Assembly: GCA_045589955.1 (NCBI GenBank)
Contig: JAZNQD010000009.1
Location: 184,876 to 248,875 of the forward strand
Reading direction: 5' to 3'
Origin: Bacilli bacterium
GTDB lineage: Bacteria > Bacillota_I > Bacilli_A > ML615J-28 > CAG-313
Length of the DNA: 64,000 bases
Within the stretch, counting starts at the first letter, position 1. Each line of letters starts with the position of its first letter. Below, piece by piece: positions 9,348-50,573 of the stretch. Position numbers and translations under genes: made by a program. The notes under the pieces are model-generated. The model saw only the letters and a list, made by a program, of their open reading frames with translations. It was not told where the DNA came from and did no database searches.

Positions 9348-9353
9348 TAGAAC
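9348..9353 (-). promoter_or_regulatory. GTTCTA box upstream of the gp25-like gene (putative phage late promoter)
   Basis: One of 11 intergenic, gene-facing copies. Confidence 0.5.
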
Positions 9354-18685: not shown

Positions 18686-18754
18686 GATATAAATTTTTTG
18701 TTTTATTTTTATGCATACTTCTTTATAATTAAAAAAATATTAGGAGATGATTTT

Positions 18755-20272
18755 ATGTTAAAGACTTTTATTTGTGAATATTGCGGAAAAGAATATCAAG
18801 CCGATCCAGATTTAGGAGTTTGGCAAAAAGATGATACACAGAAAAAAAGTCAAATTGGAGTTTCTTGTAAGAGATATTGCTGTTATAAATGCGGTAAAAA
18901 AGCTCGCGCAGAGAAAGTTTCAGCTCAATGGCAAAATAAATCTATAGATGAAGTAAATGCCGTTGTCAGTAAGCGAAAAAAGGCTGTTAAACCACGTATT
19001 TGTAAAGTGTGTGGTAAAGAGTTTATTCCAAATGGTCCAACAGGTAATGCAAAAGGCGTATATTTATGTTCAGACGAATGTAGAGAGAAACATTTTCGCT
19101 TAATTCCAGATAGCGGTATAAAGAAATGCCAAAATTGTGGTAAAGAGTATCATTATGAATCTGGTCAAGGTAGTTGGGATAAAGATAATAACCTAGTAAA
19201 AGTAAATGGATTAGGACATGAATTTGTAGTTAAAAGTCATAGATTCTGTTGCTATGAATGCGGAATTAAATATAAAGAAAGAAAAAGAAAAGTAAGTAAT
19301 ATTGTAAAATACGGTAGGGTTAGCCCATTTCAAGATACCGACTTTAGAAAAAACTTTATTGAAAAACAAAAAGAAAATGGTACATTGTTTGTATCTAAAG
19401 GCGAACAAGAAATAAAAGATTGGTTAGAATCATTAGGCGTAAAAACAGAACATTATATAACTGGAAATGGATTAAATGATAAAACACCCCGTATTGAAAT
19501 TGATATTTATATTCCAGATTTAAAAATAGGCATAGAATATAATGGTGTATACTATCATAGTGTAAATGGTATTAAAAAAGATAGAATAAATACAAGATAT
19601 CATTATAATAAAAGTAAATGGGCACAAGAAAATGGTATTGAATTAATTCATGTATGGGAAGATCAATGGCTTAATAAAAAAGAATTAGTAAAAAGCATTA
19701 TAAAAGCTAGACTCAACCTAATTGATAAGAAAGTTAATCGTATTTATGCCAGAAATTGCGAATTACGTGTATTATCAACTGAAAAATATCGAGAATTTTG
19801 TGAGTTGAACCATATTCAAGGCTATAAAAAAGCAAGTATTAAATTAGGCTTATTCTATAAAGATGAATTAGTACAAATTGCTTCTTTCGGAAAAGTAAAT
19901 AATAGAGGAAAAGCCGTTACCACTAATAAAAATTATGATTATGAATGGGTACGTGGCTGTCCTGCTTCATTAAGTTATGTCGTCGGTGGTACTTCTAAGC
20001 TATTTAAATATTTTATTAAGAATTATACGCCTTCTTCTGTATTATGTTATGCAGACTGGAATCTTTTTAATGGCAGAGGATATAAAGAATGCGGTTTTGA
20101 ATTAGCGGGATATACTGGACCAGATAAATTCTATGTAACCGCAGACCATCATTATATAAGAAAAGGACGAGATCCTTATAACTACAAAGAATTAATGAAT
20201 CTCGTCCAATCTAATAAACTTTGGCTTTGCTATGGAGCTGGCTCTATGCGTTTTGTTTGGAATAAAAGCTAA
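18755..20272 (+). mobile_element. Free-standing putative homing endonuclease (Zn-finger repeats plus PD-(D/E)xK/Vsr-like nuclease and C-terminal domain)
   Basis: Probable start is ATG 18755 after AGGAG. CxxC...CxxxC repeats and IEIDIYIPDLKIGIEYNGVYYH; oriented opposite to both neighbours. Confidence 0.7.
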
Positions 20273-28509: not shown

Positions 28510-28515
28510 TAGAAC
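28510..28515 (-). promoter_or_regulatory. GTTCTA box upstream of the terminase genes
   Basis: GTTCTATATAAATA. Confidence 0.5.
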
Positions 28516-44100: not shown

Positions 44101-44178
44101 AACTTATAAAATTATATACAAAGTTCTAATAGTGTATACATGCTAATGATTTTGTATAATTAACTTATAGGTTTAACA

Positions 44179-48079: not shown

Positions 48080-48973
48080 TTAAAACATAATCGCATTACT
48101 ACCGGTATCTATTTCTTTTTCTTCTTGTTCTTTTAATAGATATTCGAAAATTAAATCGTTTGAATATTGACCATCGTCTAAGATATCGATTTTTGCTTTA
48201 GCTACTTTAAAATCACCAGAACAAATATGTGTTAATTTAGCTATTTGGTTTTGTGTTAATTTATATTCTTTACCAAAATATGTTTTTACGCCAGCTACAA
48301 TATTCTCAGGTTTCATATAATCATATTTTATCTTAAATATAAATCTACGTAAAGAAGCGTTATCTATCTTATCTTTTAAGTTTGTAGTCATAATAAAAGG
48401 ATAAGGATGATCTTCCATTTGTGTTAAAATTTCATTTACTGAAGAAGCTTGATGGTTTTGTTTAGCATATCTACGATCGAATAAGAATGAATCTGCTTCA
48501 TCAAATAAAAGAATAGCTTTTTTATCACGTGCTTCTTTAAAGGCCATTTTAATATTTTGTTCAGTTTCGCCTACAAATTTTGCTTCTAAATCACTAGCAC
48601 GCTTTTTTATAAATGGCATTTTTAATTCTTGAGCTAACCATTGTCCATAAAAAGATTTACCAGAACCAGATACACCATAAAGCAATAATCCATACTGTTT
48701 AATCTTTGATTTTTTAAGCTTAGTAGTTAATACTTTCAAATCTTGATTACAATTAACCATCTTATAATCAAATTTAATTTTTGGTCTTGGTGTTTCTTCT
48801 TGTTCTGAATTAGCTGATGTACTACTATTTAAATCTTTTACTATAGCATTACGCAGCTCCGGGGGTAAAAATTCTAATAAGTGCGGATCTAAATTGTTAC
48901 CATCTACATAATGTATATTGTATCTAACATTTGTAAAATTATTATTACCGTTGTTATCACCTGGAAAGATCAT
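48080..48973 (-). CDS. AAA+ ATPase
   Basis: LLYGVSGSGKS, LLFDEAD, TTN, D.ASLRRF. Confidence 0.9.
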   Translation of the reverse strand: MIFPGDNNGNNNFTNVRYNIHYVDGNNLDPHLLEFLPPELRNAIVKDLNSSTSANSEQEETPRPKIKFDYKMVNCNQDLKVLTTKLKKSKIKQYGLLLYGVSGSGKSFYGQWLAQELKMPFIKKRASDLEAKFVGETEQNIKMAFKEARDKKAILLFDEADSFLFDRRYAKQNHQASSVNEILTQMEDHPYPFIMTTNLKDKIDNASLRRFIFKIKYDYMKPENIVAGVKTYFGKEYKLTQNQIAKLTHICSGDFKVAKAKIDILDDGQYSNDLIFEYLLKEQEEKEIDTGSNAIMF

Positions 48974-48983
48974 ATTATACCTC

Positions 48984-49403
48984 TTAGAATGTCACTAATA
49001 TTTTACCTAATTTTGTTAATAATGAAATAGCATCTCCTGCGATACGTAACTTAGTTTTTGTAAACTCTAATGTACGCATAGTAGTTTCTTCAGATAAACA
49101 CATTTGATAAGCAGCAATAAAATCTGTAACTGAATCAGTTGAGTCAGAAATATAAATGTTATATGTGCTAACTAAATTTTCAATACGTTTAGCTATTTCA
49201 AATCGCTCTTTTTTAGAAGATGAAGTACAAAACTTTACTAATTGTTCGGCTTTTAAAATACCTAGACCATTAGAATATAAGAATTCTAAGCAAGTATCTT
49301 CTTCACTTGCATTTGTTACTTGTAAAGGTAAATTTTTATTAAACCACTCAAAAGTTAATTCGTTTTCATCATTATTTTTTTGGCGTTTTCTTTTCCAAAA
49401 CAT
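48984..49403 (-). CDS. Hypothetical protein
   Basis: ORF with RBS. Confidence 0.5.
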   Translation of the reverse strand: MFWKRKRQKNNDENELTFEWFNKNLPLQVTNASEEDTCLEFLYSNGLGILKAEQLVKFCTSSSKKERFEIAKRIENLVSTYNIYISDSTDSVTDFIAAYQMCLSEETTMRTLEFTKTKLRIAGDAISLLTKLGKILVTF

Positions 49404-49469: not shown

Positions 49470-49503
49470 AAAAAATGCCCCATCTTAATATATAGACAGG
49501 GCA
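49470..49503 (-). terminator. Intrinsic terminator after hsp20
   Basis: TGCCCTGTCT/AGATGGGGCA stem plus U-run on the minus strand. Confidence 0.7.
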
Positions 49504-49511
49504 CTTATTTC

Positions 49512-49964
49512 TTAGTCTATAGTATAAATTTTAGGCTTTTTTTCTTCTGGAATTTCAATTTTAATATTGATTTGTAAAAGACCATTAAAATAGTTTACTT
49601 TATCTATCACTGAAAATTCTGGAAGTTTTAAACTCCATTTGAAACTTCTGCTAGCTATACCTTTATAAAGATAATCTCTCTCTGGAGTACCAGCCGTAAT
49701 ATCTTCTACATATAGCACGTTATCTTCAGTTGATACTTTTAAGCCCTCTTTAGGATAACCAGCTAAGCTTAATTCTACTGTAAATTCATCAGTAGTATCT
49801 TTGTCTTTACGATAAATATTATATTTTGGAAATGACTCTTGACGCTCTACTAAATTTAAAGGTAAAGCATTTGAAAAGAAAGCGTCGATAAAAGGTGAAA
49901 ATTGTGAGTCAATAATGCGAGAAAGTGAACCGCGCATCAACGGTGAAAGTTGCTTATTTGTCAT
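49512..49964 (-). CDS. Small heat-shock protein (IbpA-like Hsp20)
   Basis: FPKYNI, ELSLAG, YLYKGIASRSF, NGLL.I, IPEEKKP. Confidence 0.92.
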   Translation of the reverse strand: MTNKQLSPLMRGSLSRIIDSQFSPFIDAFFSNALPLNLVERQESFPKYNIYRKDKDTTDEFTVELSLAGYPKEGLKVSTEDNVLYVEDITAGTPERDYLYKGIASRSFKWSLKLPEFSVIDKVNYFNGLLQINIKIEIPEEKKPKIYTID

Positions 49965-50028
49965 TTTAAAAATCTCCTAATTTAAGCAAGATTAATGTAG
50001 ATGTAAGCCTATAAAGCACTTACATTAA
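49962..50028 (-). promoter_or_regulatory. ROSE-like RNA thermometer in the hsp20 5' UTR
   Basis: AAUCUUGCU-UAAAUU-AGGAGAUU hairpin with a bulged G opposite the SD, plus an upstream AUGUAAG/CUUACAU hairpin. Confidence 0.7.
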
Positions 50029-50087
50029 TATAGAACTATTAAATACAATCAATTGTTCTATTAATTAAGAATATATAAGGAAAAATC

Positions 50088-50573
50088 ATGATTGTAAAAC
50101 AGAAAACTAAAATGGCAAAATCACGTACTGCTACTCGAAAAGCAATAAAGAAATTTTGTAGACCAAAAAAACCTAAGATTGGATTCGTAAAAGTAGGACA
50201 AACCAAATTAAGGCATGGTACTTCTAAGAGTGAAGATGTTTGGTTATCTAATTTACAAGTTCCAGAAAGAAGTAAGGTAATATATGGCTTTAATGGTAAA
50301 GTTTATATTGTAGATGGATATAATGCCAATACTCGAACTATTTATGAGTTTTTAGGCAATTATTTTCATGGTCATCCTATTCAATATAAAGCGGTTTTTG
50401 ATAGCATTAATTCATTGACTAAAACTACATATAGATATTTATACGAAACAACTAAGGCAAGATTTCAATTATTTCATTCTCTTGGCTTTAAAGTAGTTTA
50501 TGTATGGGAATCTGATTATAAAAAGAATCGTTTTGCACAAAGAGTTTATATACCTGGAAAAGAGTTAGTATAA
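50088..50573 (+). CDS. Vsr-like/PD-(D/E)xK nuclease with a basic N-terminus (possible homing endonuclease)
   Basis: IVDGY...TIYEFLGNYFHGHP...VVYVWESD. Confidence 0.6.
   Translation: MIVKQKTKMAKSRTATRKAIKKFCRPKKPKIGFVKVGQTKLRHGTSKSEDVWLSNLQVPERSKVIYGFNGKVYIVDGYNANTRTIYEFLGNYFHGHPIQYKAVFDSINSLTKTTYRYLYETTKARFQLFHSLGFKVVYVWESDYKKNRFAQRVYIPGKELV

Follow-up and report, generated by a model that had tools for sequence, protein, structure and literature searches.

A ROSE-like leader, probably an RNA thermometer, precedes small heat-shock protein genes in a wide range of phages

The DNA analysed here, 64,000 nucleotides of contig JAZNQD010000009.1 (the window; positions are counted from its first letter), is part of a large myovirus with T4-type modules. 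On the minus strand it carries a gene for a small heat-shock protein (sHsp) behind a leader of about 60 nucleotides (nt), and this leader is our subject. A first-pass annotation, made from the sequence alone, had described the minus strand from 50036 down to 49962 as a ROSE-like RNA thermometer controlling the sHsp, and its reading of the letters matches GTTCTATATTAATGTAAGTGCTTTATAGGCTTACATCTACATTAATCTTGCTTAAATTAGGAGATTTTTAAAATG exactly. The open reading frame (ORF) of 150 amino acids (aa) that follows the leader matches Pfam HSP20 (E = 3e-10) and PHROG 432, 'Hsp20 heat shock protein' (E = 6e-26); its best NCBIfam model is IbpA (E = 2e-16), under the equivalog cut-off of that model. The features of the locus are listed below, where SD stands for the Shine-Dalgarno sequence and R2 for a covariance model described further on.

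50055-50060, plus strand: mirror GTTCTA box of the divergent gene (50088-50573), 33 nt before the ATG of that gene
50029-50036, minus strand: GTTCTATA box, a putative promoter-type element for the sHsp transcript, judged by conserved position and intergenic placement
50001-50025, minus strand: hairpin 1, AUGUAAGU ... GCUUACAU, likely to lie at the mRNA's 5' end, supported by covariation
49971-49993, minus strand: hairpin 2, the SD-masking stem-loop AAUCUUGCU-UAAAUU-AGGAGAUU, supported by RNAalifold, covariation and model R2
49985-49989, minus strand: UUGCU anti-SD motif with G49987 unpaired (predicted bulge), invariant in 20 leaders of the window's family
49973-49978, minus strand: Shine-Dalgarno sequence AGGAGA, 8 nt before the ATG, identified by sequence; AGGA is invariant across the family
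49512-49964, minus strand: IbpA-like sHsp gene, 150 aa, ATG at 49964-49962, identified by Pfam HSP20, NCBIfam and PHROG 432
49950-49956, minus strand: UAAGCAA within codons 3-5, able to pair with the anti-SD arm UUGCUUA and speculatively part of a competing conformer
49473-49506, minus strand: intrinsic terminator after the sHsp stop codon, a 13-pair stem and then a T run

In hairpin 2, the arm AAUCUUGCU (49993-49985) pairs with AGGAGAUU (49978-49971) across the loop UAAAUU, and the hairpin ends 6 nt before the ATG of the sHsp gene. Its eight pairs run A-U, A-U, U-A, C-G, U-A and U.G, then, past the unpaired G49987, C-G and U-A; this is the anti-SD/SD pairing with a bulged G that had been annotated, with one U.G wobble among the pairs and no partner for G49987. 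The second hairpin that the annotation had placed upstream is also present, at 50025-50001, with arms AUGUAAGU and GCUUACAU that covary. The sequence AATCTTGCT occurs only once in the 64-kb window. Because a terminator stem and T run follow directly after the stop codon, the sHsp gene is monocistronic.

ROSE-like thermometers are defined in the literature by two to four hairpins, an SD held within the 3'-proximal hairpin through imperfect pairing to U(U/C)GCU, a bulged G, together with non-canonical base pairs (PMC3669281, PMC11182007, PMC11342760); in the crystal structure of a ROSE element, the bulged G is accompanied by a U.G wobble and a C-G pair (PMC11342760). All of the sequence and secondary-structure features in this definition are present in the window leader. 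It is the 5' untranslated region (UTR) of a gene of the IbpA/Hsp20 class, and it has two hairpins throughout the window's family, with two or three in related phages. The SD pairs imperfectly with U(U/C)GCU, and the consensus secondary structure predicts a bulged G with a U.G (or C-G) pair on one side and a C-G pair on the other. The leader is not a fourU thermometer, as the anti-SD arm, UCUUGCU, contains no UUUU.

Querying GenBank phages at the nucleotide level with 1.3 kb spanning the leader returned no matches, and relatives were therefore reached through the sHsp protein. Its homologues, from uncultured sources, form a graded series from 93% down to about 45% identity, from which we recovered the DNA of 20 distinct leaders (the window's family). 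UUGCU shows no variation across these 20. In clade 1, the arms AAUCUUGCU and AGGAGAU are invariant, and the loop (6-8 nt) and spacer are variable. Clade 2 has the arms (U)UAAUUGCUAA / UUAGGAUUAA or AAAUUGCUA / UAGGAUUU; here the UUGCU/AGGA core and the unpaired G are retained, and the flanking pairs differ on both sides (C-G to A-U, U-A to A-U, A-U to U-A). RNAalifold, unprompted, returned the same structure for hairpin 2, including the unpaired G. In the alignment, 89.4% of the hairpin 2 cells are paired, compared with 41-75% when the 3' arm is slid; none of 500 shuffles matches the score, and double changes are seen at four pairs. For hairpin 1, the corresponding values are 90.4% paired against 24-44% when slid, again with none of 500 shuffles matching the score, and here five pairs have double changes arising in several lineages, together with 15 further pair types.

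Selection acts on both hairpins as sense-strand RNA structures of the sHsp gene, because the many G.U pairs of hairpin 1 and the invariant U.G of hairpin 2 would turn into A.C on the opposite strand; within the window's family, hairpin 1 is the better supported of the two by covariation. Transcription would then start at or upstream of hairpin 1, with the anti-SD arm inside the mRNA. A start site downstream of the anti-SD arm, which the annotation had named as a reason to give up its reading, is unlikely, since hairpin 1, which lies 5' of that arm, covaries as sense RNA.

The same leader is found far outside this family. In a metagenome scan we collected 79 more distant sHsp loci, marine and freshwater, at 27-44% identity, whose leaders share one plan, in which a G+C-rich hairpin and an A-rich spacer come first and U(U/C)GCU, a short loop and AGGAG follow, the last just 5' of the ATG. 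Throughout the metagenome loci (L009-L087), a U(U/C)GCU/AGGAG leader of two or three hairpins stands before most of the phage Hsp20 genes examined. A correctly placed U(U/C)GCU precedes 64 of the 76 SD-bearing phage sHsp genes, compared to 4 of 220 other SD-bearing genes on the same DNA (odds ratio 288, p ~3e-47).

We counted base pairs in 66 distinct phage hairpins by anchoring on the U(U/C)GCU motif, a procedure free of aligner and model bias. The motif is UUGCU in 53 of these hairpins and UCGCU in 13, the loops range among phages from 3 to 11 nt, and some are GAAA tetraloops. Pairs outside the invariant core covary (C-G, A-U and U-A at x1-y1; U-A, C-G and A-U at x2-y2), and the observed pairing is reached by none of 2000 shuffles. 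Nine apparent C.A cases in this count are AGGAGGA leaders read in the wrong register. We also made an alignment of 81 sequences, and for the distant hairpins we used an equal-length subset (A8). The pair on one side of the bulge is U.G in 51 sequences and C-G in 18, and the pair on the other side is C-G in 68 of 69.

Model R2 was built from 16 distant phage leaders only, with the window's family excluded, and was run with filters off. On the 64-kb window, hairpin 2 is its sole significant hit (29.7 bits, E ~6e-6), the next site reaching 13.5 bits; over 353 kb of sHsp loci, it yields 81 hits, 80 of which lie directly 5' of an sHsp start. A model built from the window's own family, R1, is too sequence-specific, giving seven hits, every one an sHsp leader. 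The same leader is also found in four cultured phages, here with the position of each within its locus.

L208, 338-362: Synechococcus phage S-SM1
L209, 319-342: Prochlorococcus phage P-RSM1
L210, 370-394: Methylophilales phage Melnitz-3
L212, 401-424: Synechococcus phage S-SKS1

We excluded a record named 'Campylobacter phage A11a' (L211, MG065691.1, marked UNVERIFIED); it is G+C-rich, has an IbpA that begins MRNFD, as the enterobacterial protein does, and a UCGCU/AGGAG leader, and is probably bacterial (enterobacterial) DNA.

In IMG/VR and GTDB genomes, the exact element of the window occurs upstream of sHsp genes only. A scan for it in bacterial genomes returned 72 matches, 71 of which are coding or have no sHsp gene after them; the sole genuine match lies on a phage-like contig, L191, and thus no host copy of the leader was found. 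This contig (GTDB JBJFGR010000097.1, 44 kb) is near-identical to the 237-kb IMG/VR phage contig of locus L003 and sits in the bin of a Succinivibrionaceae metagenome-assembled genome; either a phage was mis-binned, or the contig hints weakly at a gammaproteobacterial host. These results show that the leader is specific to sHsp genes and common to a wide range of phages. The annotation had remarked that such an element was not known to it as a standard phage feature. This holds in so far as the leader is apparently unreported, but it precedes most of the phage Hsp20 genes examined, those of cultured cyanophages included.

Among known systems, the Pseudomonas ibpA UTRs are 61-62 nt long and form two hairpins (PMC3669281). 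Like these (ROSE_3, RF02523), the phage leader has two hairpins in about 60 nt, an SD in the 3' hairpin facing U(U/C)GCU, an unpaired G beside a U.G wobble, an unpaired AUG, and a gene of the IbpA class downstream; even the hairpin sequences are very similar, as can be seen from P. aeruginosa hairpin II (ACUUGCUGAUAAUUCAGGAGAU) and the phage hairpin (AUCUUGCUUAAAUUAGGAGAU). In contrast, the G-C 'clamp' pairs that lie beside the core in Pseudomonas are partly A-U in the phage, the phage hairpin has a predicted folding free energy (dG) of about -3 kcal/mol at 37 C as opposed to -4.7, hairpin 1 is unrelated in sequence, a phage box takes the place of the sigma-32 promoter, and the carrier is a phage. 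The enterobacterial ibpA and ibpB leaders (ROSE_2, RF01832) share the UCGCU/AGGAG core with its unpaired G, but they have three hairpins and are longer, and in Salmonella the SD hairpin reaches towards the AUG region.

The RNA thermometers known from phages are those of lambda cIII and SPbeta blyA (a fourU element) and a fourU element of a sigma-70 gene (PMC11182007, PMC10586365). Like the sHsp leader, whose temperature response is a prediction, they are phage-encoded leaders that act at the level of translation, and lambda cIII switches between two alternative structures, comparable to the possible conformers A and B that we describe below. None of them is of the ROSE type or controls a chaperone, the sHsp leader for its part has no fourU, and they are single cases, whereas conservation of the sHsp leader extends over more than 60 distinct lineages of phages.

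The annotation had suggested that the sHsp gene is transcribed from a phage-type GTTCTA promoter. The box itself is well borne out, being recurrent, gene-oriented and intergenic, with relatives carrying a late-promoter sequence at its position; its role as a promoter is a likely reading of this placement. Within the window, 10 of the 13 GTTCTAWWW sites fall in intergenic DNA, which makes up 7.3% of the sequence, and each lies 12-80 nt 5' of a gene start on the same strand. The GTTCTA(W)3 boxes, on the minus strand at 9353, 17954, 18685, 21953, 24222, 28515, 30416 and 50036 and on the plus strand at 44123, 45280 and 50055, look like a promoter class of the window's phage. Over-representation of the word was ruled out, with 23 occurrences of GTTCTA observed and ~43 expected, and the signal is one of placement. 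The box at 28515 overlaps a TATAAATA sequence.

In 17 of the 19 related leaders, the GTTCTA box lies 5-7 nt before hairpin 1. From the end of GTTCTATA in the window it is 64 nt to the ATG, and at this distance (54-68 nt) the distant phage sHsp leaders have NATAAATA, which we take to be the T4-type late-promoter sequence. Of the 60 distinct leaders that extend far enough upstream, 37 contain NATAAATA, a word with a background frequency of 0.5 per kb. The end of NATAAATA shifts with the length of the leader, from 54-68 nt before the ATG where there are two hairpins to 92-97 nt where there are three.

Further upstream, the sHsp gene and the divergent gene at 50088-50573 have back-to-back boxes (TAGAAC-18 nt-GTTCTA, window 50031-50060); the TAGAAC...GTTCTA pair is found at nearly all related loci, and at two of them (L005 and L200) the boxes overlap as the palindrome GTTCTTATATATTGTATAGAAC. 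A sigma-70-like TTTACA-17-TATATT at 50070-50098 on the minus strand overlaps the start of the divergent gene, and several related loci have GCTTTACA exactly 17 nt upstream of the TTCTAT within the GTTCTATA box. Judging from its sequence, the sigma-70-like element may be a second promoter, read by the host RNA polymerase, that gives a longer leader. We also considered sigma-32-type and T4 MotA-type readings of these upstream boxes and, judging by eye, rejected them because their spacing is unsuitable.

Taken together, we consider the leader to be a ROSE-like RNA thermometer, a phage sub-family whose layout is nearest to the short two-hairpin thermometers of Pseudomonas ibpA, with a probability of about 0.65. 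The sHsp gene would form a self-contained unit of phage promoter box, ~60-nt leader, gene and terminator. Hairpin 1, at or near the 5' end, is probably a folding or stability module. Hairpin 2 would hold the SD AGGAGA against AAUCUUGCU in a stem kept deliberately weak by its U.G wobble, its unpaired G and a predominance of A-U pairs. While closed, this stem would block binding of the 30S subunit; warming would open it, and translation of the chaperone would rise with temperature. As an added layer, the IbpA-like protein may bind its own leader and repress translation until it is titrated away by aggregating proteins. From the leader's structure and from the known systems that it resembles, we infer where transcription starts, that ribosome binding is blocked and that translation responds to temperature.

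Several results weigh against a thermometer of the ROSE type. The first is the outcome of the Rfam covariance search, which the annotation had proposed as a check: neither ROSE (RF00435) nor ROSE_2 (RF01832) gave a hit at E<=10, and the best Rfam match, ROSE_3 (RF02523), scored 14.6 bits against a gathering score of 43. For the distant leader L064, too, ROSE_3 is the top match, at 19.8 bits. As positive controls, the ibpA leaders of Salmonella and P. aeruginosa score 94.9 bits on ROSE_2 and 69.2 bits on ROSE_3, respectively. The Salmonella ibpA leader scores 23.9 bits on ROSE_3 and the ibpB leader 22.5 on ROSE_2; since genuine members score low across sub-families, the Rfam ROSE models are lineage-specific. 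Conversely, R2, trained on phage leaders, picks up the Salmonella leaders of ibpB (23.3 bits, E 0.0025) and ibpA (16.5 bits). The element is therefore ROSE-like by the literature definition and, by covariance model, a separate sub-family outside RF00435, RF01832 and RF02523. Because the current ROSE models miss the phage elements, a new Rfam sub-family is justified. At the Salmonella locus used here (L206), the annotated ibpB coding sequence (1685-2152, beginning MKAKTRFLEGEMIMRNYD) starts too far upstream and engulfs the ibpB thermometer, which R2 and ROSE_2 place at ~1625-1730.

A second point concerns the covariation of hairpin 2 in the window's family, where the double changes amount to few independent events because most of them come from a single split between the two clades. 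The remaining points concern stability. By nearest-neighbour calculation, the dG of the isolated hairpin 2 is -5.2 kcal/mol at 25 C, -3.1 at 37 C and -1.6 at 45 C; the medians for the family are -6.3 kcal/mol at 15 C, -4.8 at 25 C and -2.9 at 37 C. For the Pseudomonas and Salmonella hairpins, the same calculation gives about -4.7 and -4.8 kcal/mol at 37 C, so the isolated phage hairpin is 1.6-2.3 kcal/mol weaker. In full context, the predicted probability that the window SD is unpaired is 0.52, 0.66 and 0.74 at 25, 37 and 45 C, and by SD masking the gene ranks 25th of 48 window genes; at 37 C, this probability is 0.15-0.19 in the validated ibpA leaders and 0.12-0.61 in the other leaders of the window's family. 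Nor is the fold of the leader more stable than that of shuffled sequence (z = 0.16). If the host lives at a constant 37-39 C, such a stem might be largely open throughout. The phage stems at ~25 C match the stability of the validated hairpins at 37 C, and by these models the weaker phage stems would fit the cool habitats of marine phages. Because the standard parameters omit the non-canonical interactions of ROSE stems, the energy figures neither prove nor exclude function.

The start of the sHsp coding sequence may also take part in the fold. Pairing of the UAAGCAA codons with the anti-SD arm forms the minimum-free-energy alternative in the window leader; the two conformers, A and B, are predicted to differ little in energy and to exchange rank in stability at 25-30 C. 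The AAG codon within UAAGCAA is rare in the window's phage (15% of Lys codons), but 10 of 13 related leaders have it. In the window's clade, this anti-anti-SD may, on these models, turn a simple zipper into a two-state switch. In the distant leaders, the equivalent complementarity shows a weak excess, and for this reason we keep the anti-anti-SD as a hypothesis.

The strongest alternative is that the leader is chiefly an autoregulatory operator, through which the phage IbpA-like protein represses its own translation until aggregating proteins sequester it, for example during overproduction of late gene products, with temperature playing a secondary role at most. The IbpA proteins of E. coli, Cedecea and Vibrio repress themselves through ROSE-type 5' UTRs, and in the E. 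coli protein R93 is irreplaceable, residue 34 (Y34) must be aromatic, and positions 97 and 98 must be basic (PMC10474464). The phage gene likewise lies behind a ROSE-type leader, and the window sHsp has an Arg at the position of R93 (GIASRSF, compared to GIAERNF) and a Phe at that of Y34, as do 9 of 10 aligned phage homologues. In contrast, the basic pair R97/K98 is absent, being replaced by Trp and Ser, and two homologues with Gln or Lys at the R93 position retain the leader; the missing basic pair also counts against the self-repression layer that we added to the thermometer. Self-repression is attractive because in most of the phages the sHsp gene lies behind a late-promoter box and would be expressed when structural proteins are made, and a weak hairpin in a possibly isothermal habitat suits a protein-assisted block better than a purely thermal one. 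By analogy with IbpA, then, such control is plausible as a complement or rival to thermal control, and the two are compatible; as the chief function of the leader we think it improbable, at something like one chance in five.

It is less probable still that the hairpins are a constitutive attenuator of translation combined with a stabilising 5' structure, which would set the level of the chaperone without sensing anything. 5'-terminal stem-loops commonly stabilise mRNAs, and the moderate masking of the SD, its gradual shift with temperature and the ordinary stability of the fold would all suit an element of this kind. It fails, however, to explain why the ROSE core is invariant across very distant phages while other positions of the stem drift, or why the design is restricted to sHsp genes. 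That the inverted repeat works as DNA, whether as the operator of a dimeric repressor or as a promoter element (a MotA-box-like TGCTT(A/T)A, for instance), can be dismissed as very improbable: AATCT...AGATT is an imperfect palindrome and TTGCTTAA presumably resembles the T4 MotA box, but the U.G pair (51 of 69 sequences) and the G.U pairs of hairpin 1 would read A.C on the opposite strand and are mismatches in duplex-DNA half-sites, the repeat is asymmetric on account of its unpaired G, a loop of 3-11 nt is incompatible with a fixed half-site spacing, and one of the arms is the SD.

Phage-encoded sHsps are widespread, especially in marine cyanophages, and the leader of their genes appears to be undescribed so far. 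Two papers on cyanophage sHsps contain no mention of a UTR, a thermometer or ROSE, and we found no paper linking cyanophages, hsp20 and RNA thermometers in a search that covered mostly open-access literature, so an earlier description elsewhere is possible. A 2024 paper counts only three phage RNA thermometers, none of the ROSE type (PMC11182007). The broader proposal that these observations raise is that phage Hsp20 genes as a class, in gut or rumen jumbo myoviruses, T4-like cyanophages and marine methylotroph phages, have in their leaders a ROSE sub-family that has gone unrecognised and usually lies downstream of a late promoter; it would gate chaperone synthesis during virion production by temperature, by the load of aggregated protein through IbpA-style self-repression, or by both. 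We hold this tentatively, at slightly less than even odds.

The interest of the leader lies in its breadth across phages and in the ease with which it can be tested. If the proposal is true, thermosensing of the ROSE type takes place in cyanobacterial hosts; the hosts' own hsp17 thermometer belongs to another type. Should the leader sense temperature, ecologically important phages could tie burst size and timing to the temperature of water or host; should it sense the availability of the sHsp, phages would have imported a chaperone together with its feedback circuit. In either case, the phages supply more than 60 natural versions of the ROSE core whose predicted set-points are lower, which is useful for learning how such thermometers are tuned.

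The window has a G+C content of 30.7%. Its T4-type modules include a baseplate wedge, a UvsX-like recombinase, a DNA polymerase, an NAD-dependent ligase, an RnlA-type RNA ligase, an anaerobic ribonucleotide reductase (nrdD) and homing endonucleases. The reductase and the Succinivibrionaceae-binned contig, the only hints as to the host, suggest an anaerobe of the animal gut or rumen. The order of genes around the sHsp is constant in related phages: divergent gene, sHsp, small ORF, AAA ATPase. The small ORF (139 aa in the window) and the classic AAA ATPase (297 aa) always lie 3' of the sHsp gene, in the window at 48080-49403 on the minus strand; the ATPase belongs to PHROG 10401 and has weak similarity to IteA and CDC48. 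The three genes may form a conserved chaperone-like module. In one relative (L088, 3018-4453), the ATPase gene contains an intein or homing-endonuclease insertion (Hom_end_hint, LAGLIDADG). Genes for GIY-YIG (SegE-like) and HNH homing endonucleases occupy variable insertion sites near the sHsp locus among relatives (L090 401-1303, L198 420-1346), with window 18698-20272 on the plus strand as a further example.

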